DNA of 32,000 bases from Diaphorobacter ruginosibacter (GTDB taxonomy: Bacteria; Pseudomonadota; Gammaproteobacteria; Burkholderiales; Burkholderiaceae_C), in NCBI RefSeq assembly GCF_014395975.1, contig NZ_CP060714.1, positions 1 through 32,000 of the forward strand, in the 5' to 3' direction. The first letter of the stretch is position 1; each line of letters starts with the position of its first letter. Below are positions 15,870-28,733 of the stretch, piece by piece. The translations under genes and the position numbers were made by a program. Below the pieces are notes generated by a model. The model did no database searches. It was not told the origin of the DNA and saw only the letters and a list, made by a program, of their open reading frames with translations.

Positions 15870-15873
<4 letters not shown>
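14815..15873 (-). CDS. ABC transporter ATP-binding protein (DppF/OppF type)
   Basis: Walker [10 protein letters not shown], signature FSGGQRQR, Walker [13 protein letters not shown], and a C-terminal oligopeptide-type extension. ATGA overlap with the upstream ATPase. Confidence 0.9.
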
Positions 15874-16886
<1,013 letters not shown>

Positions 16887-17000
16887 CGGGCGTCAGCTGC
16901 GTTGTGAGGCAACTGGCGAGGCTTTTTGAGGTGGCTGCCGTGGGTTGGTTGTTCCCGGCCGGGACTGCCCCCGGCGGGGCCGTAACTTTGGAGGGTCGTC

Positions 17001-17933
17001 TCATCCCACGTTCCTCGGGTTGAGCACGTCGCGCAGGCGATCGCCCACGAGATTGATCGCGACGATGGTGATGAGCAGTGCAATGCCGGGGTAGAAGCTG
17101 ATCCAGTACTCGCCCGAGAGCATGTACTGGTAGCCGTTGGAGATCAGCAGCCCGAGCGAGGGTTCGGTCACGGGGACGCCCAGGCCCAGGAAGCTCAGCG
17201 TGGCCTCGAGCGTGATGGCGCGGGCGATCTGCAGCGTGCCGATGACGATCAGTGGCGGCAGGCAGTTCGGCAGGATGTGCTTGACCATGATGCGCCAGTT
17301 CGGGATGTCCTGGCATTGCGCCGCCTCGACATATTCCTTGCGGCGCTCGACCAGGGCCTGGCCGCGTGCGGTGCGGGCGTAGTAGGCCCACTCGAGGATC
17401 ACGAGCGTGAGCACGACGTTGCCCACGCCCTTGCCCAGCCATGCGAGGATCATCATCGCGACGAGGATCGACGGGAACGAGAGGATCAGGTCGACGATGC
17501 GCATGATGACGGCATCGGTGCGGCCGCCCGCATAGGCCGCGAGCAGCCCGAGCAGCGTGCCGATGACGCCCGCGATCAGCGCGGAGCCGACGCCGACGAT
17601 GAGACTGATGCGCAGGCCGTAGAGAATGGCCGAGTACAGGTCGCGGCCCTGGCCGTCGGTGCCGAGCACGTAGCGGAAGGTATCGAGTCCGTTCATGGCG
17701 CCCGGATGCAGGCGGGCATCCATGACGTCCAGCTGCATCAGGTCGTAGGGGTTCTGCGGCGTGATCCACGGCGCGAACAGCGCGGCCAGGATCAGCAGCG
17801 CGGCCACGACGAGACCGAACACCGCGAGCCTCGACGCGAAGAAGTCGCGCGCATGCTCGCGCCAGGGCGACTCCTGCCTGGAGGGCCGGGCGGGCGTGGC
17901 GGGCGGTGTGGGCGGGGTGGTGGACTGGCTCAT
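17001..17933 (-). CDS. ABC transporter permease (DppC/OppC type)
   Basis: Multi-TM BPD-transporter permease (TLEATLSFLGLG motif). ATGA overlap with the upstream permease fragment. Confidence 0.9.
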   Translation of the reverse strand: MSQSTTPPTPPATPARPSRQESPWREHARDFFASRLAVFGLVVAALLILAALFAPWITPQNPYDLMQLDVMDARLHPGAMNGLDTFRYVLGTDGQGRDLYSAILYGLRISLIVGVGSALIAGVIGTLLGLLAAYAGGRTDAVIMRIVDLILSFPSILVAMMILAWLGKGVGNVVLTLVILEWAYYARTARGQALVERRKEYVEAAQCQDIPNWRIMVKHILPNCLPPLIVIGTLQIARAITLEATLSFLGLGVPVTEPSLGLLISNGYQYMLSGEYWISFYPGIALLITIVAINLVGDRLRDVLNPRNVG

Positions 17934-18365
17934 GCCGCAGCTTCCAGACGTACGCGTGGATCAAGCACCTTGTAGAGGATGTCCACGATGAGATTGAGCG
18001 TGACGAACAGGCACACCACGACGACGAGGTAGGACACGATCACGGGCCGGTCGAGCGCGTTGATGCTGTCCAGGATCAGCTTGCCCGCGCCGGGCCACGA
18101 GAAGATGCTCTCGGTGACGACGGCGAACGCGATGGTCGATCCCAGCTCGAGGCCGAGCACGGTGACCAGCGGGATCATGGTGTTGCGCAGCACGTGCACG
18201 ACGATCACGCGCAGTGGCGACAGGCCCTTGGCGCGCGCGAACTTCACGAAGTCGAGCGGAAGCACCTCGCGCACGCCGGCACGCGTGAGGCGGATCACGA
18301 GCGATATCTTGAACAGGGACAGGTTGATCGCGGGAAGCAGCATGTGCTTGAGGCCGCTTACCGTG
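17930..18365 (-). pseudogene. 3' fragment of a DppB/OppB-type ABC permease gene, separated from its 5' part by the prophage
   Basis: Encodes ...VSGLKHMLLPAINLSLFKISLVIRLTRAG...ILYKVLDPRVRLEAAA, which is the C-terminal ~145 codons of a DppB-like permease. There is no N-terminal half here. The matching N-terminal half is at 25698..26239. Confidence 0.85.
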
Positions 18366-18378
18366 GTTTTCGAACCAT
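18351..18378. other. attL (host half AGGCCG-cttacc, core GTG, phage half gtttt-CGAACCAT)
   Basis: This is the junction between the permease reading frame and the lower-GC insert. See the att finding for the symmetry of the half-sites. Confidence 0.6.
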
Positions 18379-18384
18379 AGAAAG

Positions 18385-18410
18385 GGACCGGTTTTTCCGG
18401 TCCTTTTTTT
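18385..18410 (+). terminator. Stem-loop plus T7 run at the left phage end
   Basis: GGACCGG-ttttt-CCGGTCC followed by TTTTTTT on the plus strand. The T-run overlaps the recombinase stop codon. In a circularised genome it would lie just downstream of the plus-strand HTH gene. It also follows the minus-strand recombinase gene. Confidence 0.6.
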
Positions 18411-18984
18411 ATTCCAAGCTGCTGTGACCCGGTTTCGTTACCCGGTAGATAGCACGTTTGACGCTCGAAGTATGGACACCGAAATGATGGGCTAGGGCGT
18501 CCATCGTGTAATAACCAGTTCCATACAAACGCACAAGGTGAGCCTCCTTGACAGGCGTCAAAGATCGCTTGCGACCAAACTTCACACCACGGGCCTTCGC
18601 TGCTGCGATACCCGCTGCACTTCGCTCTAGGATCATTTCCCGTTCAAACTCGGCAAATGCGCTCAGCATATGCACAAACATTCGACCGTGCGGCGTATCG
18701 GTTTCGATAGATTGCGTCAATGATCGAAACCCAATTCCCCGTCGTTGCAGATCTTCAAAAACCCGCACGAAATGCGAAACACTGCGCGCTAGACGGTCCA
18801 ATTTATAGACCACCAATACGTCACCTTTTTTTAGGCGCTTCAGCAGCTTGGCAAGTTCCGGTCGTTCCTTTATTGCAGACCGACGTTCTTCAACAATATG
18901 CTCTATTCCCGCTCTCCTGAATGCTTCTACCTGAGCATCTGTGTTTTGTTCAGAGGTAGACACGCGTGCATAACCAATCTCCAT
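18409..18984 (-). CDS. Small serine recombinase (resolvase/invertase family)
   Basis: N-terminal catalytic motif MEIGYARVSTSEQ (nucleophilic Ser), VYKLDRLARS, and a C-terminal HTH (YYTMDALAHHFGVHTSSVKR). 191 aa. Confidence 0.9.
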   Translation of the reverse strand: MEIGYARVSTSEQNTDAQVEAFRRAGIEHIVEERRSAIKERPELAKLLKRLKKGDVLVVYKLDRLARSVSHFVRVFEDLQRRGIGFRSLTQSIETDTPHGRMFVHMLSAFAEFEREMILERSAAGIAAAKARGVKFGRKRSLTPVKEAHLVRLYGTGYYTMDALAHHFGVHTSSVKRAIYRVTKPGHSSLE

Positions 18985-19010
18985 TTATCCTCCCATATAT
19001 GGAGAGCTGA

Positions 19011-19481
19011 CTATCGCTTGAAATCGCGCTGAACACGCAATGCCAATTGGTTCAATTGACGCAGCCCGGGCGGCTTGTTGTCCATGCTGTAGCTGATCCT
19101 CTCATCACGCTTGGGCACTGGCGATACATGATCCTTCAGCTTGCCACCGGCGAGCGTGAATGCCGGGCTTCCATCGGTTATTGCCTCGCAGTGGTCCACC
19201 TCGACCGCCACCGGCCGGCCGCGTCCGGTGTAGCACCGGCATTCATCTGCCATGCGCAAGCATCCATTCGGCACCTGGGCCGCCACTGGAAGCGATACCA
19301 GGATGATGAGCAGCAGCGCAACGGCGCTAGCGCGCAAACAGCCGACGTTTATCAAGCACGAATGAGCGCCACGCATTGCCAGATACCGTGCCTCGCGGAT
19401 GTACGCATCGAATTGCAAGAGCCGCGACGTCTCCGCTTCGCTGACATGGGGCGATGCCCCATACCCCACAGCGCCCCTCAT
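19011..19481 (-). CDS. Hypothetical single-pass membrane/periplasmic protein, possible pXI-like assembly partner
   Basis: ATGA overlap with the Zot-like gene stop. TM segment ASAVALLLIILVSLPVAA followed by a Cys-containing soluble part. An internal start at MRGAHSC is possible. Confidence 0.5.
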   Translation of the reverse strand: MRGAVGYGASPHVSEAETSRLLQFDAYIREARYLAMRGAHSCLINVGCLRASAVALLLIILVSLPVAAQVPNGCLRMADECRCYTGRGRPVAVEVDHCEAITDGSPAFTLAGGKLKDHVSPVPKRDERISYSMDNKPPGLRQLNQLALRVQRDFKR

Positions 19482-20368
19482 GCAGACAGCCTCATGCGCT
19501 GATAGCGTGCCACCAGTTGAAGCGATTGATCTGGTGGCAGCGCTCGAGCCAGCTTAACGACTCGCGCCAACTGAAGGTCAGGCACCAGCGGTGCTAACGG
19601 CTTGACATGTTGCGGCTTGGCCTTGAACAAGATAGCGAGCAGCTTTCTCCACCATGGGACCTCATCGCCCGCCAGGAAGCGCCCTTCAACATGCCATGGC
19701 GAAAGCACTGAATGTGTGCCGTATGGGTAGTCCAAGCGGAACACCTGCCGCGTGTCGTAGCAAGGCTCAATGTCCTGGCCCTTGAACCAAAGTCGATCGC
19801 TCACCAAGTCTTGCGGATTCGTGCCAATCCGGAAAACCGCTTGATGAAAACGCGGCAGATAGCCGAATCGATCGCCAAGCAGCATCCCGATCAACGTGCC
19901 GACGAAAGGAATGCGCACCTTGTCATAGCGCACATGTCGCACGGTCTGTTCAATAAACGAGTCCCGTAGCTGCTTATCGACCTGGGAGACGTCCTGCATG
20001 ATGTAGTAGCAGTCCCAGCCATGCTTACGAGCATGCGCCAGGAAATCAAGGGTTCCGGCCCGCCCCTTATCGTTGAACGTGCGCGCGTTGAACCACGTAC
20101 CCAACTCATCAAGCACCATGGCCCCGTTTTTATCTTCATCGTAGGAATCCGGGTTGCCATGCCCCGCCGCCAGTAAATCGAACTCAGTCGGCTTATCTGG
20201 CACGCGCACATAGGTAACCTTCGATCGCGGACCAAACATGGCTTTCAGATCGATATCCAAGTTTGTGGCCACAGCCCTTTTTCGCTTGAAATAGGTCTCG
20301 CGCATGCGCAAGACAGCGTGCTTGCTTTTGCCAGTCCCTTTCTTTCCGACGAACGCGTAATCGGTCAT
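19478..20368 (-). CDS. Zot/pI-family phage assembly ATPase
   Basis: Walker A FVGKKGTGKSK at the N-terminus and Walker B GAMVLDELG. It sits after the pVI-like gene, as in inoviruses. Start at MTDYAF (CAT at 20366..20368). Confidence 0.85.
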   Translation of the reverse strand: MTDYAFVGKKGTGKSKHAVLRMRETYFKRKRAVATNLDIDLKAMFGPRSKVTYVRVPDKPTEFDLLAAGHGNPDSYDEDKNGAMVLDELGTWFNARTFNDKGRAGTLDFLAHARKHGWDCYYIMQDVSQVDKQLRDSFIEQTVRHVRYDKVRIPFVGTLIGMLLGDRFGYLPRFHQAVFRIGTNPQDLVSDRLWFKGQDIEPCYDTRQVFRLDYPYGTHSVLSPWHVEGRFLAGDEVPWWRKLLAILFKAKPQHVKPLAPLVPDLQLARVVKLARALPPDQSLQLVARYQRMRLSA

Positions 20369-20369
20369 A

Positions 20370-20720
20370 TCAGCGGCTGTAGTTGTGAATGCCAGTCTTC
20401 CTGATCTTGTAGACCTGACACCCAATCCACACGGAGGCCATGCACGTCAAGATCGCACCGGCATTGCCAGGAATGAACATACCCACGCCCATCAGGAAAT
20501 AGGACCAAAGCGCCCCATTACCACCGCCACCACCACCGCCCTGAACCATGCCAAGCAACGTATTCAAACAGACAGAAACTGTCGTGACGAAGGTCGTTAG
20601 GATGGTGATCCACACAAGGAAGGACGCCAAGCTCAGCGCAGCTTTGAATCCCAGCCAGCGTGAAAAGAAGCCCGTGAGAAAGGTCGCAATCGACCCTATG
20701 AAAGTCGCAAGAATCGGCAT
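20370..20720 (-). CDS. pVI-like minor virion protein (hydrophobic, 116 aa)
   Basis: Called from position between the pIII-like and pI-like genes, from size, and from multiple hydrophobic segments. It contains an internal G7 tract. Confidence 0.6.
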   Translation of the reverse strand: MPILATFIGSIATFLTGFFSRWLGFKAALSLASFLVWITILTTFVTTVSVCLNTLLGMVQGGGGGGGNGALWSYFLMGVGMFIPGNAGAILTCMASVWIGCQVYKIRKTGIHNYSR

Positions 20721-22085
20721 TTAAACGGCCTCCCTGATCCAGCCCAAACAAAGCCATATAGCCGTCAGCGCCCACACATAAGCCATGATCGCGCGACCAG
20801 TATCGACAACCTCACATTGCTTTTCATAGGCCACACCACCAGGGAGAGGTATGGGCGTGCAAGACGCCAACGGAGGCGCTGAAAAGAGCACATTCATGGA
20901 ATCGAAAATTCCACCACCAGATTCCTTCATCTGATCGCGATTAGCCTCAATATCGGCCTTCCACTTATCCAGACCTTTGCCACCATCACCCTTGTACTCC
21001 TTGGGCGTACCTGTCTCATCGATCTTGCAAGGCGGTTGCCCCGGCGCACCGCACGCAGCTTGCTCTTTACCCTCACCCGGCTTGTTCGTCGTGCCGTCTG
21101 GCTTGGTTCCCCCACCAGCCGCGCCCCCAGGGCCACCAGCACTACCGCCTGTGCCAGTACTAGGCGTGCGCCCTGCACCGTCAGTACCAGACCCCTCCCC
21201 CTCACTCGGCTTATTGCCCGCGGGAGGGTTGCCCTTATCTGAGCCGTTGTTGTTCGGCTTGTTTGGATCGGTAGATGGCACCGGCTTTTGCGCGTTACCA
21301 AAGCACCCCTTGACACCATTGACCTCACCGACATAACCCGGGCACGGTGGGTCTTTCGAGTCATCAGGCGTGAGCAAATCAGGCGCTACCTCACTGTCAG
21401 AAGTGCTGCAGCTTTCCCCGCTGTAATGACCTCTGAAATCAGTACTGACCCGGTACATGCCATTGTTACCGGGCGTTTGCGATACCCACCCTTTGCAGTC
21501 CGCACACGGCTCATTGGCGTCAATGTCTTGCTTACAACCACTGGTGCCACCCGGCGTGCTAGGACTGCAAACACTGAACTGACCGCCCGAAGGAAGCTGG
21601 TTAGTTACAACCCAGGACTCGGAAGGGTCACCAACGCTGGGCGTACGCTTCCATCCCGATGTGATATTCACAATGTCGAACGTACCGGCCTTGCCGCCAC
21701 ACTCCGCAGACTGGTTGGATTTACACTGCCCGCCCTGCTCTGAATAGCCAGACTTGCACACACACTCGCCGCCAACGCTTTCCGAATTTTCAGGGCAGAC
21801 TTGGGCGGTGCTGCATGGGACATTCATCAAATTGATATCCCGGCCATCCTTGTTCTGAGCCATGATTTGACAGAAGCCTGAAGCCGAAATGCCGTAGAAG
21901 CGGTAAGCAACACTCTCCCCGGACGGTGGCTCATTTGCTGCGGCGTCTGCGCATGCAGACTCTTTCGACATACCAGTACCGTAACGGCACACATAGCCTT
22001 GGCCTGGAGGCACCGAGGCTATGGCTGAATGACCAAGGACCACCAGCATGACGGCCAGCAGCCAACGCCAATAAACAATTCGCAT
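20721..22085 (-). CDS. pIII-like adsorption/minor coat protein
   Basis: Signal peptide (LLAVMLVVLGHSAIA), a Cys-rich N-terminal region, a long G/P/T/S-rich linker (GSGTDGAGRTPSTGTGGSAGGPGGAAGGGTKPDG) and a C-terminal anchor (AIMAYVWALTAIWLCLGWI). GAGGAG SD. Confidence 0.7.
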   Translation of the reverse strand: MRIVYWRWLLAVMLVVLGHSAIASVPPGQGYVCRYGTGMSKESACADAAANEPPSGESVAYRFYGISASGFCQIMAQNKDGRDINLMNVPCSTAQVCPENSESVGGECVCKSGYSEQGGQCKSNQSAECGGKAGTFDIVNITSGWKRTPSVGDPSESWVVTNQLPSGGQFSVCSPSTPGGTSGCKQDIDANEPCADCKGWVSQTPGNNGMYRVSTDFRGHYSGESCSTSDSEVAPDLLTPDDSKDPPCPGYVGEVNGVKGCFGNAQKPVPSTDPNKPNNNGSDKGNPPAGNKPSEGEGSGTDGAGRTPSTGTGGSAGGPGGAAGGGTKPDGTTNKPGEGKEQAACGAPGQPPCKIDETGTPKEYKGDGGKGLDKWKADIEANRDQMKESGGGIFDSMNVLFSAPPLASCTPIPLPGGVAYEKQCEVVDTGRAIMAYVWALTAIWLCLGWIREAV

Positions 22086-22109
22086 AACGACTCCTCAAAC
22101 TGCCTTACA

Positions 22110-22130
22110 CATGCCCCGAAAGGAGGCATG
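22110..22130 (-). terminator. Hairpin between the major coat and pIII-like genes (possible attenuating terminator)
   Basis: Minus strand CATGCC-T-CC-tttc-GG-GGCATG. There is no strong T-run. The position is analogous to the terminator after gene VIII in Ff phages. Confidence 0.35.
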
Positions 22131-22142
22131 GCGTAAAGCCGC

Positions 22143-22382
22143 TTAGGCAGCGGACTTGCCGCGCTTGATCCACTTGATGCCAATCATGATGCCGGTCGCA
22201 ACGACAGCCAGAGCAAAAAGCGGAGTGGCGTAGCTGCTGGCCTCGCCCTTGAGCGCCTCGAGAGAAGCGGCAGCACTCGGAATCGTTTCCTGCGCCATGA
22301 CGCCAGCAGACAGAGCCAGAGCACCAACGGCGGCAGCAGCCTTAGAACCGTACTTGACCATCACATTACGAGTTGTGTTCAT
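22143..22382 (-). CDS. pVIII-like major coat protein precursor (79 aa)
   Basis: Leader ending ALSAGVMA, then an acidic N-terminus (QETIPSAAASLEALKGE), a hydrophobic core (LFALAVVATGIMIGI) and a basic tail (KWIKRGK). GGAGG SD. The longer track ORF runs through a hairpin and is rejected. Confidence 0.75.
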   Translation of the reverse strand: MNTTRNVMVKYGSKAAAAVGALALSAGVMAQETIPSAAASLEALKGEASSYATPLFALAVVATGIMIGIKWIKRGKSAA

Positions 22383-22423
22383 AGAACCTCCGAAAAGTTG
22401 AAAAAAAGGTGCAACTGCACCGG

Positions 22424-22480
22424 CAAGCGTTGCGCCCCTGCGGGGCACGCTACGCATACCCCGCAGGGGCGCAACGCTTG
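22424..22480. repeat. Perfect 22-bp inverted repeat with 13-nt loop
   Basis: CAAGCGTTGCGCCCCTGCGGGG (22424..22445) and its exact reverse complement (22459..22480). The repeat lies in the non-coding gap upstream of the coat gene. Confidence 0.9.
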
Positions 22481-22497
22481 ACGCTAAAGTCGCTTCA

Positions 22498-22602
22498 CTA
22501 CGCGGCGCGAAAGGCCATCCGCACCATTCGCACCTTGAAGCCAATGACGTAACCAACGGCCCATGCCGCCATGAAATAGACAAGACTCGCGGCCATCAGC
22601 AT
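22498..22602 (-). CDS. Tiny hydrophobic protein, pVII/pIX-like (34 aa; not in the ORF track)
   Basis: My translation is MLMAASLVYFMAAWAVGYVIGFKVRMVRMAFRAA. It has a hydrophobic N-part and a basic C-terminus, and lies just upstream of the coat gene, as gVII/gIX do in Ff. Confidence 0.4.
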   Translation of the reverse strand: MLMAASLVYFMAAWAVGYVIGFKVRMVRMAFRAA

Positions 22603-22760
22603 CCCGCCTTCAAACAGCCTTCAGGCTGGGCAGGCAGTACCGACAGCACCGCAGGTGCCGGGATCGGCACGGACCAGGGGTTTTTCCAACCCACATAGAT
22701 CCTGAACACCCCATAACACACAGCTAGAAAAATCACCCACACGGCCATTCGTTGAGCCAT
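22596..22760 (-). CDS. Alternative small membrane ORF (MAQRMAVWVIFLAVCYGVFRIY...)
   Basis: One TM segment. Its stop overlaps the tiny ORF start region (TGATG). It overlaps ORF 22621..22866 in another frame, so both cannot be confirmed. Confidence 0.25.
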   Translation of the reverse strand: MAQRMAVWVIFLAVCYGVFRIYVGWKNPWSVPIPAPAVLSVLPAQPEGCLKAGC

Positions 22761-22866
22761 AAGACACCCCCACTGAGACACCGACCGCAAGGCCAGCTAG
22801 AAAAGAACAAAAAACGATGGTTGCCAGCAGGGCCAAAGCACCCGCATAGCGTCGAAAAAAGGTCAT
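22621..22866 (-). CDS. Hypothetical small membrane protein (81 aa)
   Basis: ATGA overlap with the upstream 34-aa ORF. The N-terminal TM segment (ALALLATIVFCSFLAGLAVGV) is convincing; the C-terminal half is less protein-like. Confidence 0.4.
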   Translation of the reverse strand: MTFFRRYAGALALLATIVFCSFLAGLAVGVSVGVSYGSTNGRVGDFSSCVLWGVQDLCGLEKPLVRADPGTCGAVGTACPA

Positions 22867-22967
22867 CCAGCAGCGCCCCCACCGGCCAGATAGCCCAGGC
22901 CAAACATGACGGCGACAAGGCCGCTCGTCAGGATTTCAGAGAAGTACTGCAACTGGTCGGGCGTCAT
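22863..22967 (-). CDS. Tiny hydrophobic protein (34 aa; not in the ORF track)
   Basis: My translation is MTPDQLQYFSEILTSGLVAVMFGLGYLAGGGAAG. It has ATGA overlaps with the Rep stop (22964) and with the next ORF start (22866). Confidence 0.45.
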   Translation of the reverse strand: MTPDQLQYFSEILTSGLVAVMFGLGYLAGGGAAG

Positions 22968-23944
22968 TGCGCATCCTTGATTTCAGGGAGCCAGGAAAAC
23001 GGACCGCATGGTTCGATCCTTCGCGGGCCTCGCCGCACGCGGATAAAGCTATGAAAACCGCCGCCCGTTGGTGCGAAGTCAGAGAGCAAAAGCTCTCCTG
23101 TCTCAGCATTGACGTAACCGCCTCCCGGCGCAGGTCTAAAGCGGTCTTGCACCGAAGCATTAGCCTGCACATACGAAGGCCAAAGTACCCAACGGCGGCA
23201 AGCACGGCCAGTTTCAGACAGGCCTCCACAGCCATGAATTCGAGCGCCATGCGGAAATCCTCCAATCGTTTTTTGGCCCACCTTGCTGACGTACTTCATC
23301 AGGTACGCGACCGGGCAATAGGCCTTGTCCCTTCGGGTCATGCCATGCGGCCACATAGGAGGCTCCCAGAGCTTCAAACCGGCCCGGTCTTTACGTGACC
23401 ATGGGCGATCCCCTTTCGGCGGCGTAAGGCCCCCTTCCAGCCACACAACGATGTGGTAATGAATGACGCCTCGGTCCTGCAATTCAGCAACCCATGCATA
23501 GCGCACTGTCTTGCTGCCGGTCTTGGCGTAGTGCCACTTGCGCAGTGCGTCGAGGTATCGGCTGATGTGCTCAGGCTTCCACGCGCGGTTATCGCCGCGG
23601 TAGGTCAGCGTCTGCATCCACATCTGCTGCTTTAAGCTGCCCGCGTTGTGCAGGGCCTTGGAAGCCACGCCCAGCGATTTGCGCAGGCGCGTGATGCGGC
23701 TTTGGATTGGATCGATGGTGATGACGTTATCGGTCCATGCCAAAGCCACCTGATCTTTGCCGGTGTAGGTCTCACCGCCAACGATCAGAGACGATCCACT
23801 TGCAGTCCTGCAAGTTGTTGATACTGAGACAAGCCCGGCAGCGCTGCGCGCTGCCTGCTCAGCTGCACGCGCCTGCTGACGTGCGAACAGCAATGCACCC
23901 ATGCTCTGCATGCGTGCCTCGTTCTTGGCCTGAAGCGCGCTCAT
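22964..23944 (-). CDS. HUH-type rolling-circle replication initiator (gII-like function)
   Basis: HUH motif VIHYHIVVW and Tyr motif AYLMKYVSK. Start at MSALQAK, with an ATGA overlap on the upstream ORF. Confidence 0.85.
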   Translation of the reverse strand: MSALQAKNEARMQSMGALLFARQQARAAEQAARSAAGLVSVSTTCRTASGSSLIVGGETYTGKDQVALAWTDNVITIDPIQSRITRLRKSLGVASKALHNAGSLKQQMWMQTLTYRGDNRAWKPEHISRYLDALRKWHYAKTGSKTVRYAWVAELQDRGVIHYHIVVWLEGGLTPPKGDRPWSRKDRAGLKLWEPPMWPHGMTRRDKAYCPVAYLMKYVSKVGQKTIGGFPHGARIHGCGGLSETGRACRRWVLWPSYVQANASVQDRFRPAPGGGYVNAETGELLLSDFAPTGGGFHSFIRVRRGPRRIEPCGPFSWLPEIKDAQ

Positions 23945-24462
23945 GCCAACTCCAACGGACGGCACTGATGTGCCAGGTCAACCAGCCATTGCGCAAAGGC
24001 CGCAGGAGTGCGTTCACGCTCCGCACGACCCATACGTTCGACCGTGCAGGTCGCAGCGACCTCACCAGGTTCGATAGCTGGCACCGGGCCGACGATGTAG
24101 AGACACGTCTTTTTCTGGGCACGATGACCGAACCAGCTCTGCATTACCGGCACCAAAACGCCGCCATGCTGATCGCGAACACCGAACGTGCCGCAGCCTG
24201 ATACGCCCCACAACTTGGAACTGAATGGATGTTCCAGAACACCGCCAAAGCGGCGCACCATAGCCATAGACCACAGCGCCAGCTCGCGCTCACCGTCCCG
24301 CGGCTTTGCAAAGTGCGAGAGCTGGCCCCACGCTCTACACGGTGGATGGAAGATGCCAGGTACACCACCCGGCCAGGTCAAGGCATCGCGATCAATGTCG
24401 TAGCAGTCACAGCCGAGCGCCGCATAGTGGTTGTCCGCACGGACGAAAAGAGCAGCGACCAT
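23941..24462 (-). CDS. Hypothetical protein (173 aa) translationally coupled to Rep
   Basis: Clean ORF with overlapping start and stop codons on both sides. The motifs FHPPCRAWG, LEHP and GHRAQKKTCLYIVG weakly recall C5-methyltransferase motifs IV, VI and VIII. This is unverified. Confidence 0.6.
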   Translation of the reverse strand: MVAALFVRADNHYAALGCDCYDIDRDALTWPGGVPGIFHPPCRAWGQLSHFAKPRDGERELALWSMAMVRRFGGVLEHPFSSKLWGVSGCGTFGVRDQHGGVLVPVMQSWFGHRAQKKTCLYIVGPVPAIEPGEVAATCTVERMGRAERERTPAAFAQWLVDLAHQCRPLELA

Positions 24463-24656
24463 CAGAGGCCCTCCCCGCTCACAGGCATGCCGCCTCGCGT
24501 GTACGTGAAATCGACGGTGGTCTCTTCGCCTTCCATGCGGAAATGCGCAGACACACCGTCGATCAATGAGAGCTCTTGTTGACGCTGCTCCATGAACAGC
24601 GCCAGGAGCGCGTCATGGGCAGCAGCGAGCCGCGCATCGTGCATGGCTTGAGCCAT
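24462..24656 (-). CDS. Hypothetical protein (64 aa)
   Basis: Tightly packed between the gV-like gene and ORF173 (TGATG overlap downstream). I recognise no motif. Confidence 0.5.
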   Translation of the reverse strand: MAQAMHDARLAAAHDALLALFMEQRQQELSLIDGVSAHFRMEGEETTVDFTYTRGGMPVSGEGL

Positions 24657-24658
24657 GG

Positions 24659-24976
24659 TCAGCCCTTGACGTCAGCAGCTGCGGGGGCGGACTTGATCGC
24701 GCGCAAACGCGGCGACATGGCAATGTCACCGTTGCGGCTCACATAGACCGATTCAGGCGCGAGGGTGTACTCGCCGATTGGGTAGTAGAGCGCCGCACCT
24801 TCGGAGTTGGTGGGCAGGATGATTTCGACCTTCGTGGGGTACGGCTCAGGGTTGCCGTTCTTGTCCACGAGGTGGAAATAGACGTTCTGGAAATTGAGGC
24901 TGTAGGGCTTGCCAGATTGCTTGGAGGTGCCGCTTTGGTTGCGGACGTCGGTCGACTTTACCGATACCTTAATCAT
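24659..24976 (-). CDS. Gene-V-like ssDNA-binding protein
   Basis: MIKVSVKS...SGTSKQSGKPYSLNFQNVY...YPIGEYTL...SPRLRAIK aligns by eye with Ff gVp (MIKVEIKP...SGVSRQGKPYSLNEQLCY...YAPGLYTV...DRLRLV). GGAGA SD. Start CAT at 24974..24976. Confidence 0.85.
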   Translation of the reverse strand: MIKVSVKSTDVRNQSGTSKQSGKPYSLNFQNVYFHLVDKNGNPEPYPTKVEIILPTNSEGAALYYPIGEYTLAPESVYVSRNGDIAMSPRLRAIKSAPAAADVKG

Positions 24977-25066
24977 GATTTCTCCTAGACTGTGCGACGT
25001 TGCACACGTTGACCCTGCACGCAAGGCCAACGTTTGAAACGTCAGGCCAATGCAGAGGGAGAAGAA
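24977..25066. promoter_or_regulatory. Divergent control region of the prophage (candidate operators and/or origin)
   Basis: Near-palindrome TGTGCgACGTtGCACA (24991..25006). ACGTTG at 24997 and 25006. Palindrome ACGTTT-g-AAACGT (25030..25042) flanked by direct AGGCCAA repeats (25024..25030 and 25044..25050). Confidence 0.45.
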
Positions 25067-25345
25067 ATGGATTTAAGCCAGTACTCCAAAGTGATGGAGC
25101 AGATAGAGCAAATGTGGATGCGCGCGCTGATCGTCGATCTGTGCATTAGCGTGATCGCGTTCATCGTGGTTTGTTGGGTTGCGTACTCGATCACGCGCGC
25201 CGCCGTTCGTGATGGCATACGCGATGCGCTTCCGCGCTTTCCAGTCGCAAACAACAAAGGAGCGCCACCAGATGGATTCAGGTGGGAGCTTGTAAAAGAC
25301 GACGCACCCAAAGCACAGATGCCAGATATGCGCGCTGAAAAGTAA
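25067..25345 (+). CDS. Hypothetical single-pass membrane protein (92 aa), divergent from the phage structural genes
   Basis: GAGGGAG SD before the ATG at 25067. TM segment LIVDLCISVIAFIVVCWVAYSI. Confidence 0.55.
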   Translation: MDLSQYSKVMEQIEQMWMRALIVDLCISVIAFIVVCWVAYSITRAAVRDGIRDALPRFPVANNKGAPPDGFRWELVKDDAPKAQMPDMRAEK

Positions 25346-25361
25346 CTGATTTTCATAAGAA

Positions 25362-25378
25362 ATTCTTAGCCTAAGAAT
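25362..25378. promoter_or_regulatory. Palindrome upstream of the phage HTH gene
   Basis: ATTCTTAG-c-CTAAGAAT is a perfect palindrome. A related CTTA-tcc-TAAG element lies at 25417..25427, next to the SD. Confidence 0.4.
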
Positions 25379-25437
25379 CTCTTTGTTTATTCGCCAGCGA
25401 AAAATGCTAAAACCCACTTATCCTAAGAGGTACTCAG

Positions 25438-25701
25438 ATGCAAAAAACCATGGAACTTTGGGCAAAAGCGCAAGAAATTAAGAGCCCTGCGCAATGGGCG
25501 CGCGAGTTCAACGTAACCCCGGAGGCGTTTTACGTAGCAAAACGACAAGGACGGCTAAGCCCAATCCTGGCGGGAAACGTTGCTATTGAATTAGGAGAGA
25601 ACCCAGAGCATTGGATGGCGATTGCCGCTCTGGAAGCAGAAAAAGAAAGCCCGCTCGTAGCAAGACTACAGCGGGCTGTCAACTCATGGCGGAGGCTGTG
25701 A
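25438..25701 (+). CDS. Small HTH DNA-binding protein (candidate phage repressor/regulator, 87 aa)
   Basis: AAGAGG SD. HTH-like segment SPAQWAREFNVTPEAFYVAKRQGRLS. Opposite orientation to the morphogenesis genes. The stop codon TGA (25699..25701) straddles the attR junction. Confidence 0.65.
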   Translation: MQKTMELWAKAQEIKSPAQWAREFNVTPEAFYVAKRQGRLSPILAGNVAIELGENPEHWMAIAALEAEKESPLVARLQRAVNSWRRL

Positions 25702-26239
25702 GGAACGACCATTGCGCACCGAGCACCTGCACCGTCTCGCCGCGGCCGCTGGCCGGCAGCCAGCCCAGGGAGACGCTGAAGGCCATGATAAGCATGAGGC
25801 CCACCCAGAACGTGGGCAGCGAGAAGCCCACGATGCTGCCGGCCATGATGGACTTGGCGAACCAGCTGTCAGGGTAGAGGCCCGCGTAGAGCCCGAGCGG
25901 CACGCCGAGCAGCGTCGCCAGGATCAGCGCCGCGATGGCCAGCTCCAGCGTGGCGGGCAGGCGCTGCAGGATCAGCTCGATCGCGGGCACGTTGTAGACG
26001 AAGCTCGTGCCGAGGTTGCCGTGCAGCGCGCCGTTCACGAACGCCAGGTACTGGCGCCACAGGGGCTGGTCCAGTCCGAGTTCGGCGATGATGCGCGCGC
26101 GTTCGATCTGGTCCACGTCCTGGCCGATCAGGATGTCCACCGGGTTGCCGATGGCATGCAGGCCGACGAAGACGATCACCGTCATCAGCAGCACCACGAG
26201 GACCGCCTGGGCGAGGCGTCGCAGCAGCCAGCCGGTCAT
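25679..26239 (-). pseudogene. 5' fragment of the DppB/OppB-type ABC permease gene, truncated by the prophage
   Basis: MTGWLLRRLAQAVLVVLLMTVIVFVGLH...GWLPASGRGETVQVLGAQWSFLT, then 5 phage-encoded codons (ASAMS) and a stop. The start overlaps the oxidoreductase stop (ATGA). Confidence 0.85.
25686..25713. other. attR (phage half ATGGCG-gaggct, core GTG, host half aggaa-CGACCATT)
   Basis: This is the junction between the lower-GC insert and the permease 5' fragment. Confidence 0.6.
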
Positions 26240-27717
26240 GATGATGCATCCTGCGGCAGTCCGTCCTGGGACGGCGGCTCGGCGGGCGTCCATTCGTCGC
26301 CGAACACCTCGGGCTCCTCGAAGGTCTGCAGGTTGTCGTAGTGCCACTGCACGTCTTCTGCGTACAGCGTGCCCGCAAGGCCCTGGGCCATGCGCTGCGC
26401 TCCCACGCTCACGGCGGGAATGTCGCCCGAGATCGTGCCCTGCGTGAGCGCTGCGGGGTAGGAGAACACATGCACGCGCGAGAGGCCCGGGCATTCACCG
26501 GGCGTCTTCTCCTGCAGCTCGAACACCGGGCCGAGGTCCGGGGAGTCGGCGAGTTCCTGGTCGTCCTCGCCCTCTGGATGGGTGAAGCGGTCCTTCCATG
26601 CACGCACGTGGGGTGCGAGCCTGGCGAACTCGGGGCGCTGGCTCCAGTCGATGCGAAAGCCTGTGGAGAAGATCAGGAAGTCGAAGCGGAACACGCCCTT
26701 GTTGGTGAGCGCGCGGATCTCGCCGTCCACCCATTGCAGGTCCTCGATCCGGGTCCCCAGGTTGAAGCGCGCGTTGTCATGGCGCGATACGCGCAGCGTG
26801 CTGCCGCGCGGCGGAGGCACCTGTTGCACGTTGATGTAGTGGCGGATCTTCCATTTCCAGGCGTCGGGCAGCGTCAGGTGGCCATGCGTGAGGCCGGGGC
26901 TGCCCGCGCCCTTGCCCTTGTTGACGCGCGGGATGTCGTCGCGGCGGATCAGCAGGTCGACGCTGGCCGCGCCGCGCTCGAGGGCCGTGGCAGCGCTGTC
27001 CATGGCGGATGCGCCCGCACCCACCACGCCCACGCGCCGGCCCTTGAGCATGGCGTAGTCCATCTCGTCGGACGAGTGCGCCCACACCTCGCGCGGCAGC
27101 TTGTCGGCCACGGGCGGTACCCAGGCGCCGCCCAGGCCGTCGCGGCCGGTGGCGAGCACCACATGGCGCGCGAGTACCGTGCGCGGTCCGGCAGGCGTCT
27201 GCATGTCGAGCTGCACCACGCCGTCAGCGCCGCGCGGCTGCACGGACAGCAGCCGGTGTTCGTTGTGGATCTCGAGATCGAGCGCCTTGCGGTACCAGCG
27301 CAGGTAGTCCATCCATTGCAGGCGCGGAATCTTGTCGAGCGCTTCCCACGCCTCGGTGCCGAACTGCGATTCGAACCAGGCGCGGAAGGTGAGTGCGGGC
27401 TGTCCGAGCGCGGGGCCGGTGAGCGTCTTGGGCGAGCGCAGCGTCTCCATGCGCGCGGTGGTCGCCCAGGGGCCTTCGAAGCCGGTGGGCGAGCGATCGA
27501 AGATGGGTGCCTGGACGCCCAGGAACTTGAGCGCGGCGGACGTGGCCATGCCGCCCATGCCACCGCCGATGATGGCGACGGGAAGCACGGGCTGGCCGTC
27601 CACTTCGGAGTCGGGCAGCCAGTTCCTGGCGGGCAGGTCGAGCCAGTCGAGGTCCTGGCGCAGGCGCGCCTCGAGTTGTTCGAGGCCTTGCGGCGGTGCC
27701 GCAACGGTGGGGGTCAT
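26236..27717 (-). CDS. FAD/NAD(P)-binding oxidoreductase (flavin monooxygenase-like)
   Basis: Two dinucleotide-binding motifs (VAIIGGGMGGMATS and VGVVGAGASAMDSA). 493 aa. Confidence 0.8.
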   Translation of the reverse strand: MTPTVAAPPQGLEQLEARLRQDLDWLDLPARNWLPDSEVDGQPVLPVAIIGGGMGGMATSAALKFLGVQAPIFDRSPTGFEGPWATTARMETLRSPKTLTGPALGQPALTFRAWFESQFGTEAWEALDKIPRLQWMDYLRWYRKALDLEIHNEHRLLSVQPRGADGVVQLDMQTPAGPRTVLARHVVLATGRDGLGGAWVPPVADKLPREVWAHSSDEMDYAMLKGRRVGVVGAGASAMDSAATALERGAASVDLLIRRDDIPRVNKGKGAGSPGLTHGHLTLPDAWKWKIRHYINVQQVPPPRGSTLRVSRHDNARFNLGTRIEDLQWVDGEIRALTNKGVFRFDFLIFSTGFRIDWSQRPEFARLAPHVRAWKDRFTHPEGEDDQELADSPDLGPVFELQEKTPGECPGLSRVHVFSYPAALTQGTISGDIPAVSVGAQRMAQGLAGTLYAEDVQWHYDNLQTFEEPEVFGDEWTPAEPPSQDGLPQDASS

Positions 27718-28733
27718 TGAAAAATCTCTTCTTCTTGTTCGGTGGGGAAATGAGGGGATGCGGCACGCTGCGGTACGGCGTGCTGCATGAGCAGTTCTGT
27801 GTGCCTGGCGGCGTCGTGGCGCACGAAGCCGGGCACCAGGGCCTGCGCAGCATCCGCAAGCGCGTTGACCAGGCCTTCCATGGCGGGCGTCATGGGCAGG
27901 GTCTGCGGGGAGACGACGCCAAACAGGAAGGGGATGGAGGTGTCGATCGCGCGCACGGCGACTCCGGCGAGCGGCAGCCCCAGCGCGGTCACGGGTTCGA
28001 GCACGGAAACGCCCAGTCCGGCGCGTACGGCGGCCATGGCGTTGACGGATGAATTGGTCTTGATGAACTGGCGCGTGCGCTCTTCGTGGGTCGCCGCGGC
28101 AAAGGCTTCGGAGAGCCGGCCCATCAGGCGGTACGGATTGGCCAGCGTGATCATGCGGCGCTGCGCAAGTTCGGCGAGCGGCACCACGTCAAGCTGCGCG
28201 AGCGGGTCGTCTTCGGGCAGCACCGCCACGCAGGGCGCCTCGGCGATCCAGTGCACCTGCAGCCCTCGGTGCTCCAGCGGCAGGCTGGTCACGCCCAACT
28301 GCGCCGTGCCGGCCAGCACGCCATGGGCCACGCGCTCGGGCGAGGCGCTGCGCAGGTGGATCTGGGCTGCGGCGGCCTTGTCGCCGCGCTGGTCCAGCAG
28401 GGCGAGCGCGGCGGGGATCAGGCCCGCGGCCAGCGCCGACGTGGCCAGCACGTGCAGCGGGCGTGACACGCCATGCTCGATCTCACGGGCACGATGGCGG
28501 ATCTGCTGCAGGCTCTGCAGCGCATGTTCCACATCCTCGAACAACAGGAAGGCCTGCTCGGTGGGCGACACGCGCGGGCCGTTGCGGCTGAACAGCGGAT
28601 AGCCGATCGCGCTCTCCAGCTCCTGCACCAGGCGCGTCACGGCCGGCTGCGAACGGCCCAGCACCCGGCCGGCAGCGGTGACGCTGCCTGTGGACATGAC
28701 GGCCGCAAAGGCTTCCAGTTGACGAAGTTCCAT
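27714..28733 (-). CDS. LysR-family transcriptional regulator
   Basis: N-terminal HTH MELRQLEAFAAVMSTGSVTAAGRVLGRSQPAVTRLVQELE. Its stop overlaps the start of the downstream oxidoreductase (ATGA). Confidence 0.9.
   Translation of the reverse strand: MELRQLEAFAAVMSTGSVTAAGRVLGRSQPAVTRLVQELESAIGYPLFSRNGPRVSPTEQAFLLFEDVEHALQSLQQIRHRAREIEHGVSRPLHVLATSALAAGLIPAALALLDQRGDKAAAAQIHLRSASPERVAHGVLAGTAQLGVTSLPLEHRGLQVHWIAEAPCVAVLPEDDPLAQLDVVPLAELAQRRMITLANPYRLMGRLSEAFAAATHEERTRQFIKTNSSVNAMAAVRAGLGVSVLEPVTALGLPLAGVAVRAIDTSIPFLFGVVSPQTLPMTPAMEGLVNALADAAQALVPGFVRHDAARHTELLMQHAVPQRAASPHFPTEQEEEIFQ

Follow-up and report, generated by a model that had tools for sequence, protein, structure and literature searches.

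The inoviruses phiRSM1, phiRSM3 and Rs551 of the genus Habenivirus each carry their own serine recombinase of the resolvase/invertase type, and integration and excision at tRNA-Ser have been demonstrated experimentally for the phiRSM enzyme, in work (Askora 2011) that is cited in PMC3816273 and PMC4471427. Serine recombinases, termed 'S-rec', also stand among the inovirus integration genes of Roux et al. 2019 (PMC6813254). A further example lies within the first 32,000 nucleotides of contig NZ_CP060714.1 of Diaphorobacter ruginosibacter, a stretch referred to below as the window. It is a complete inovirus prophage of 7,335 bp at positions 18366-25700, the ends of which are set by alignment to contigs with an empty site. 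Judged by its sequence, it is a new member of the serine-recombinase-integrating inoviruses, and the copy in the window has most probably inserted at a secondary site, where it inactivates a transporter gene.

The phage attachment site (attP) of phiRSM and Rs551 is homologous to that of the present phage, with the form TGGCGGAG...GT..TTTTCGAAC; in both cases a repressor-like gene adjoins it, and its 13-nt core is a copy of the tRNA-Ser 3' end. The tRNA arm is of the UGA isoacceptor type here, whereas in phiRSM and Rs551 it matches a UCG-reading tRNA. Whilst phiRSM resides in a tRNA gene, the copy in the window sits in a protein-coding gene, with a repeat of only 3 bp in place of the 13-bp repeat that marks phiRSM-type insertions in tRNA-Ser. 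The arrangement of the genes is also different. The recombinase gene of the present phage stands at the end of the morphogenesis operon, convergent with a regulator gene across attP, whereas that of Rs551 is located upstream and on the opposite strand from the structural genes. Moreover, attP lies inside the regulator open reading frame (ORF) here, whilst orf15 of phiRSM is reportedly unchanged by integration (PMC3816273). Beyond the recombinase, no protein similarity to phiRSM or Rs551 was detectable by tblastn, nor was any DNA similarity found, and neither genome-wide relatedness nor gene order places the phage in Habenivirus.

Another described system is RIP1 (Ralstonia phage 1 NP-2014, NC_023586; PMC10975378), known only as a circular metagenomic contig, which likewise joins an M13-like morphogenesis module with a phiRSM-type recombinase (52% identical to the present one) and attP. 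RIP1 differs in its recombinase, which shares 80% identity with the phiRSM1 enzyme and the gene of which adjoins the replication initiator gene, rep, on the opposite strand, and the remaining proteins of RIP1 are not detectably related to those described here. In the Ralstonia phage phiRSS0, attP also falls within a regulator ORF, and a new stop gained on integration shortens ORF13 from 156 to 130 amino acids (PMC3816273), but integration proceeds through the host XerCD at dif and not through a phage serine recombinase. In the XerCD/dif inoviruses (CTXphi, phiRSS, XacF1) the integration module is a different one, and only Rep is distantly related, to that of the Xanthomonas phages. The Gin and Hin invertases and the gamma-delta and Tn3 resolvases have the same fold and catalytic motif as the recombinase of this prophage. 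These enzymes invert or resolve DNA within a single molecule and need accessory sites or Fis. The role proposed for the present enzyme is, unlike theirs, intermolecular integration, as in phiRSM.

The prophage and the gene that it splits

Five contigs carry the empty site in the form of an uninterrupted permease gene, the product of which is identical to the public protein P0001 or a 99% relative of it, within DNA that is 97-99.6% identical to the window flanks over up to 16 kb. The alignments of all five stop at 18365 and restart at 25698, giving an overlap of 3 bp with the sequence GTG, and by the same comparison the prophage entered with neither duplication nor deletion of the target. A conservative exchange at a 2-bp staggered cut would be expected to yield such an arrangement. 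When 18366-25700 is removed in silico, the flanks rejoin to an in-frame DppB-like permease of 324 amino acids that is 100% identical to P0001. The junctions between lysogen and host read CTTACCGTGGTTTTCGAACC and GGAGGCTGTGAGGAACGACC, and the rejoined bacterial site (attB) reads GCTTACCGTGAGGAACG. A truncated permease product ending ...FLTASAMS is also present in public assemblies (P0361). The features at the two ends are as follows.

17930-18362, minus strand: 3' part of the host DppB-like ABC permease gene (PF00528, E=3.5e-31), in frame with 25701-26239
18363-18365, unstranded: attL core GTG, the left copy of the 3-bp overlap, from the empty-site alignments; GT crossover inferred
18366-18376, unstranded: P' half-site of attP, GGTTTTCGAAC, conserved in relatives
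18385-18410, unstranded: hairpin GGACCGG-TTTTT-CCGGTCC followed by a run of seven T, terminator-like, between the recombinase gene and attP (terminator scan)
18409-18984, minus strand: small serine recombinase of 191 amino acids, DNA-invertase/resolvase type, the inferred integrase (PF00239, E=2.4e-44)
25438-25701, plus strand: DNA-binding regulator of 87 amino acids, a putative repressor (phrog_31301 'DNA binding protein', E=3e-29)
25687-25700, unstranded: P arm of attP, TGGCGGAGGCT, with the attR core GTG; its first 13 nt are the reverse complement of the tRNA-Ser(UGA) 3' end
25701-26239, minus strand: 5' part of the host DppB-like ABC permease gene (PF19300 and PF00528)

The element is a real inovirus prophage with exact boundaries. 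It has a pI/Zot ATPase, an HUH-type Rep together with a gV protein, a small coat protein and a co-oriented genome within the compact range of 5-15 kb, and all of its 15 ORFs are intact in the window (13 on the minus strand, two on the plus strand). An initial annotation, made from the sequence alone, had proposed an inovirus-like prophage from 18363 to 25700 inside a protein-coding gene, and most of that description stands: the edges agree exactly with the empty-site breakpoints, strains with the empty site exist, the G+C content is lower than in the surroundings (56.5% within 18363-25700 as against 66.0% in the flanks), and the 191-amino-acid protein is a resolvase-type serine recombinase. 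The genes that it listed along the minus strand were recovered in the same order through profile matches for gV, Rep, pVIII, pIII, pVI and pI/Zot, the structural ORFs matching phrog_1646, phrog_4352 and phrog_17485. Its count of two small ORFs after gV holds for one of 64 amino acids; the other encodes 173 amino acids.

The insertion falls within an operon that runs oxidoreductase, dppB, dppC and then ATPase genes (window 15870-17933 and 26236-28733), and the phage genes share the direction of this dpp operon. The insertion should inactivate the transporter, and it may in addition be polar on dppC and the ATPase genes. Window position 18359, four nucleotides from the crossover, is T in the lysogen (GCTTACC|GTG) and C in all five empty sites, a synonymous difference that is taken to be strain variation. 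No tRNA gene is found within the window.

The recombinase and its attachment site

Of the solved structures, the Gin invertase of phage Mu is nearest to the recombinase (4M6F, E=1.3e-42), in an alignment that takes in the catalytic RVST motif. Among deposited phages the Rs551 resolvase, from Ralstonia, matches the recombinase best, with 53% identity over 95% of the length. Joining the prophage ends rebuilds an attP of the form TGGCGGAGGCT-GT-GGTTTTCGAAC, which can also be written TGGCGGAGGCTGT|GGTTTTCGAAC, and which lies 45 bp past the recombinase stop codon. The left 13 nt of this site, TGGCGGAGGCTGT, are the reverse complement of ACAGCCTCCGCCA. When the 13-nt arm was run as a pattern against fetched public metagenome and viral contigs, 116 of the 134 exact matches proved to be tRNA-Ser(UGA) genes by ARAGORN, one of them on a Comamonadaceae contig. 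The right arm of attP resembles the complement of a tRNA T-arm (GAGATTCGAAC). The annotated attP of Rs551, taken with its surroundings, is TGGCGGAGAGG-GT-CCTTTTCGAAC and agrees with that of the present phage at 19 of 25 positions; hence the two sites are homologous, and the 13 nt of the P arm are homologous to the phiRSM/Rs551 core TGGCGGAGAGGGT. The P' half-site recurs elsewhere as GGGTTTCGAAC (L304, a relative described below), as GGTTTTCGAAC (L307 and L152) and as CCTTTTCGAAC (Rs551). The P' arm GGTTTTCGAAC also resembles the hix/gix half-sites (GGTTTT...).

With GT as the centre, each of the four half-sites (P, P', B and B') has CG at positions 7-8, a symmetry that fails if TG is made the centre. 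For this reason the crossover is placed at GT, which would be the crossover dinucleotide. Only GTG is shared by the phage and the permease site, so the point of exchange lies within the last 2-3 bp of the classical 13-bp core. Insertions into the tRNA gene cannot map that point, since the whole core is identical there, and the off-target insertion thus serves as a natural experiment that confines strand exchange to this end of the core.

The recombinase presumably carried out the integration. XerCD is the commonest route amongst described inoviruses (PMC4471427), and integration by the host XerCD at a dif-like site, by the HUH Rep or by illegitimate recombination would be the alternative. Such an origin is nevertheless very improbable. 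The breakpoint falls exactly at the centre of a site that is homologous to the proven phiRSM attP and next to the recombinase gene, and the 3-bp overlap without target duplication or deletion fits a conservative serine-recombinase exchange. No dif-like sequence was found in the window with up to 3 mismatches, a weak test that used only the E. coli consensus.

The initial annotation knew of resolvase-like serine recombinases only in the phiRSM group and regarded this prophage as a related but distinct case. The first point no longer applies: RIP1 has such an enzyme, Roux et al. 2019 include 'S-rec', and many Comamonadaceae prophages encode one. As to the second, kinship with phiRSM is real for the recombinase and closer than had been claimed, given the homologous attP, but it does not extend to the morphogenesis protein pI, nearest to those of the Vibrio fs2/VFJ-type phages, RIP1 and the Ff phages, or to Rep, nearest to those of Xanthomonas phages. 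A distinct class of targeting, which the location in a protein-coding gene had suggested, is not the most likely reading either, with the nearest relatives located in tRNA-Ser(UGA) and the permease site matching the canonical site at chance level. The phiRSM-type system, that is, a small serine recombinase with an attP that mimics tRNA-Ser, extends beyond Ralstonia, and in a large set of Comamonadaceae inoviruses it is combined with replication and structural modules of quite another kind.

Target choice in the relatives and in this genome

Related recombinases numbered several hundred in a protein search, and Acidovorax, Comamonas, Alicycliphilus and Rhodoferax account for many of them; in a scan of a genome collection with the recombinase the best among the matches listed was 60% identical. 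Several of the relatives reside at tRNA-Ser(UGA). The closest, L304, has a recombinase that is 78% identical and the attP TGGCGGGGGCTGT|GGGTTTCGAACC; that of Acidovorax sp. ACV02 (L307) is 66% identical, and those of L287, L282 and L166 are 45-48% identical. L287 (recombinase 47%) also resembles the present phage in its gV (67%), Rep (60%) and 173-amino-acid protein (48%), whereas most of these relatives carry other replication and structural modules (Rep_trans, DUF2523-type pVI). L282 holds a tandem pair of prophages at tRNA-Ser(UGA) (positions 2363 and 10405) with an intact attP between the copies. Each of the five has a 13-bp repeat, all encode Zot and Rep, and they have a common layout of a regulator (87-102 amino acids, ending WR(R/G)L), the phage genes, the recombinase and attP. 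The phage arm tracks the variant of the host tRNA, as GGAGGCT, GGGGGCT or GGAGACT. No experimental study of these Comamonadaceae prophages was found in the literature searched.

The circular junction predicted for the present phage in the initial annotation, GGAGGCTGTGGTTTTCGAACC, gains support by homology. An equivalent contiguous form of attP, GGGGGCTGTGGGTTTCGAACC, occurs in L305 and L306, where the phage is thus circular or in tandem. A similar contig, L152, had been considered as an intact attP and was rejected: with 13 bp of identity a tRNA junction looks like attP, and in L307 this sequence forms the distal end of a composite island.

On the present evidence the element is probably a temperate filamentous phage that was integrated by its own small serine recombinase, of a type that targets tRNA-Ser(UGA) and that here used a pseudo-attB in the permease gene. 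The recombinase would bind attP through two arms of about 11 bp around the central GT, at which the strands would be exchanged. The left arm together with GT is a copy of the last 13 nt of tRNA-Ser(UGA), the right arm would mimic the T-arm, and the 3' end of the tRNA gene would be the usual target of the phage lineage. In this copy the exchange would have taken place at a weak look-alike, GGCCGCTTACC-GT-GAGGAACGACC, within the DppB-like ABC permease gene, a site that has only GTG in common with attP and where the insertion splits the gene and restores nothing. Compared with the canonical tRNA attB, the permease site matches at 11 of the 22 positions outside GT (4 on the left and 7 on the right). 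Equally good matches are given by 1.8% of the GT-centred sites in 100 kb of related host DNA, which corresponds to about 9,000 sites per genome. The tRNA-Ser arm is perfect, and the P' arm hardly differs from that of the relatives integrated at the tRNA. Recombination of a tRNA-Ser(UGA)-type phage with a pseudo-attB explains this most simply, and the permease site appears to be secondary rather than preferred.

The same D. ruginosibacter genome, which is complete (5,167,372 bp), holds a second copy with identical proteins, located by exact protein look-ups. Integration has therefore happened at least twice. The proteins of the window copy and its flanks have the accessions QNN57346 (DppC), QNN57347 (recombinase), QNN57351 (pIII-like), QNN57357 (regulator) and QNN57358 (flanking oxidoreductase), and those of the second copy QNN56245 (regulator), QNN56251 (pIII) and QNN56255 (recombinase), with locus tags near H9K76_00105-00140. 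Phages of this kind can hence inactivate host genes, here that of a peptide/nickel-type ABC transporter, and one genome can hold two copies of them. Surveys that take direct repeats of at least 10 bp as prophage ends, as in the methods of PMC6813254, would miss such insertions.

Several observations weaken the account of a tRNA-Ser(UGA)-type phage at a pseudo-attB. In one public series (SRR284098xx) the phage contigs from at least 8 runs share the end points 18362 and 25702, carrying C and GTG on one side and GTG and AG on the other. A k-mer assembly graph that diverges at 18361 and 25703, taken together with two copies, implies that the second site also reads ...C-GTG-AG..., which fits tRNA-Ser on the right (GTGAGA) and not on the left, since the base there is C and a tRNA-Ser site would have T. 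It may thus be that neither copy lies at a tRNA site, either as a result of a host tRNA that is mismatched to the phage arm or through a looser specificity. The match to tRNA-Ser(UGA) was, moreover, read from public contigs and from relatives; a synteny search for the host's own tRNA-Ser(UGA) gene used a CoA-transferase that adjoins it in a Comamonadaceae contig, and no tRNA stands next to the counterparts of this CoA-transferase in Diaphorobacter caeni, D. ruginosibacter, Alicycliphilus and Acidovorax sp. 69. In a sister lineage (L010, L092 and L093, with a recombinase 60% identical) the prophage is positioned upstream of hrcA and not at a tRNA gene, so retargeting does occur in this family of recombinases. 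Finally, the exact attP junction of the present phage was not found in the viral or metagenome collections, and no circular form was seen in them.

Some of these points could also be read to mean that the permease site, or CGTGAG-centred sites generally, are the preferred target in Diaphorobacter, the specificity having shifted or relaxed and the tRNA-like arm having been kept for the coding of the regulator end WRRL. The two copies, the second junction pair implied by the contigs from at least 8 samples, the hrcA-upstream lineage and the coding constraint on the P arm would all agree with this. Such a shift is unlikely, however. Hardly any difference separates the P' arm from its counterpart in the relatives that occupy tRNA-Ser(UGA), the agreement of the permease half-sites with the arms of the phage is no better than chance, and CGTGAG alone, which occurs about 3,300 times per genome, cannot define a site. 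Moreover, the lysogen contigs all stem from one series of runs and match one sequenced genome, which leaves a single documented insertion event at the permease.

The ends of those contigs had also been considered as a sign of the circular form of the phage, and were rejected as such, for the bases concerned are host-derived (C at 18362, AG at 25701-25702) and do not represent an attP join. The branch at 18361/18362 and at 25702/25703 is explained neither by attP nor by the empty site.

The phage is presumably still active. The element could instead be a decaying, non-productive remnant that was fixed by chance and has lost excision and particle formation, a reading that is rather improbable. 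It would account for the failure to find the attP junction in any collection searched, and it could draw on the frameshifts that split the recombinase and Rep genes in some public contigs and on the lack of a gene for the pIV secretin, none being encoded in the element by the ORF list and the profile searches. The intact ORFs in the window tell against it, and the two copies with identical proteins argue for recent activity. As to the secretin, many inoviruses rely on that of the host, CTXphi being an example. The frameshifts coincide with homopolymer-length noise in those assemblies and may be sequencing errors; they were set aside as evidence of decay, for homopolymer lengths vary throughout those assemblies. 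The T-run at 18404-18410, for instance, is given as 4 to 8 T in different public contigs, and A/T runs in the recombinase, Rep and regulator genes vary likewise, such that the split genes may reflect sequencing noise or real variation.

The position of attP also has a consequence for the regulator. The P arm of attP encodes the final WRRL, four codons in all, and host bases complete the TGA stop (GT|GA), so that the ORF has 87 amino acids in the integrated form as compared with 130 in the modelled circular form. The same gene in the relatives gives 87 amino acids beside the tRNA (L304) and 114 across attP (L305 and L306), and regulators that end WR(R/G)L with a stop supplied by the host are found in six lineages. 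This parallels phiRSS0, with a change from 130 to 87 amino acids here, and may represent a lysogeny switch. The points of note in this phage are then integration at more than one site in a genome, the mapping of the crossover and a regulator the length of which depends on integration. On a bolder view, which is doubtful, target choice would be loose, with several copies per genome at GT-centred pseudo-sites and a transposon-like breakage of genes, and the regulator would act as a built-in sensor of integration. If so, an episomal or tandem form would make the long regulator (114-130 amino acids) and a single integrated copy the 87-amino-acid product with its host-supplied stop, an outcome that would hold at the tRNA site as well as at pseudo-sites starting GAG.

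The remaining phage genes and their affinities

The other features of the prophage, in the order of the window coordinates, are listed here.

19011-19481, minus strand: protein of 156 amino acids with one hydrophobic segment and several Cys, the gene of which shares 4 nt with the end of the pI gene; also among the gene calls of public contigs
19478-20368, minus strand: pI/Zot-type morphogenesis ATPase, 296 amino acids (PF05707, E=7e-20; phrog_1675, E=9e-83)
20370-20720, minus strand: pVI-like minor coat protein, 116 amino acids (phrog_17485, E=8.5e-9; weak match to DUF5455)
20721-22085, minus strand: putative pIII-like adsorption protein, 454 amino acids, with a signal peptide, a Gly/Pro-rich linker and a C-terminal membrane anchor (phrog_4352, E=1.7e-10)
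22143-22382, minus strand: pVIII-like major coat protein, 79 amino acids (phrog_1646, E=1.1e-5; phrog_6548, E=1.5e-4)
22424-22480, minus strand: perfect GC-rich hairpin of 27 bp with a T-run after it, which separates the coat gene, just downstream, from the small hydrophobic ORFs (inverted repeat I1)
22498-22967, minus strand: three small hydrophobic ORFs (32, 81 and 34 amino acids) in the pVII/pIX position (ORF list and public gene calls; weak PHROG hints)
22964-23944, minus strand: HUH rolling-circle replication initiator Rep, 326 amino acids (PF23343, E=1.7e-26)
23941-24462, minus strand: conserved protein of 173 amino acids (phrog_12600, E=3e-49)
24462-24656, minus strand: ORF of 64 amino acids, called as a gene in public contigs
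24659-24976, minus strand: gV-type single-stranded-DNA-binding protein, 105 amino acids (PF02303, E=2e-11; phrog_1199)
25067-25345, plus strand: membrane protein of 92 amino acids, divergent from gV (public gene calls)

By its sequence the phage is a mosaic that would represent a new taxon, with an integration system of the known phiRSM kind. Searches with blastn gave no DNA similarity to any deposited phage; a match of 128 bp to a microvirus in the DNA comparison was dismissed as chance. At the protein level pI, which begins MTDYAFVGKKGTGKSK, is 43-46% identical to that of the Vibrio fs2/VFJ-type inoviruses, 44% to that of RIP1 and 39% to gene I of f1 (Ff). Rep contains the motifs HYH at residue 169 and YLMKYVSK at residue 221 and is nearest to the proteins of the Xanthomonas phages Xf109, XacF1 and Cf1c, with which it is 32-34% identical. 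The pIII-like protein has no match in the phage collection, and its assignment, which is putative, is based on position and composition.

No significant family match was found in profile searches for the 156-amino-acid protein, the 64-amino-acid ORF or the 92-amino-acid membrane protein. The 173-amino-acid protein has no Pfam, NCBIfam or PDB match, but homologues of it are encoded by related serine-recombinase prophages (L010, 61%; L287, 48%); a single-sequence AlphaFold model was discarded, its predicted local distance difference test score (pLDDT) being 34. The hairpin at 22424-22480 has a DNA fold of -41.3 kcal/mol, with z = -9.4 against shuffled sequences, and is a candidate for a packaging signal, an element of the origin or a strong terminator.

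The sister lineage upstream of hrcA is found on three separate contigs, in the interval from nadK to hrcA and immediately before the start codon of hrcA (3147-10594 in L010), and carries Rep_trans, DUF2523 and Zot. In L307 (10845-13770), and also in L152 and L308, a block of 3 kb between the recombinase gene and the P' junction encodes an OLD-family nuclease (AAA_15 with an OLD-like TOPRIM) and a T5orf172 protein, which are possibly the defence cargo of a filamentous prophage. A public contig of 14.7 kb encodes a protein of 363 amino acids (P0374) in which an N-terminus like the 64-amino-acid ORF is fused to the C-terminal two-thirds of the pIII-like protein, an arrangement which suggests that a related phage has lost Rep and the coat gene through deletion.

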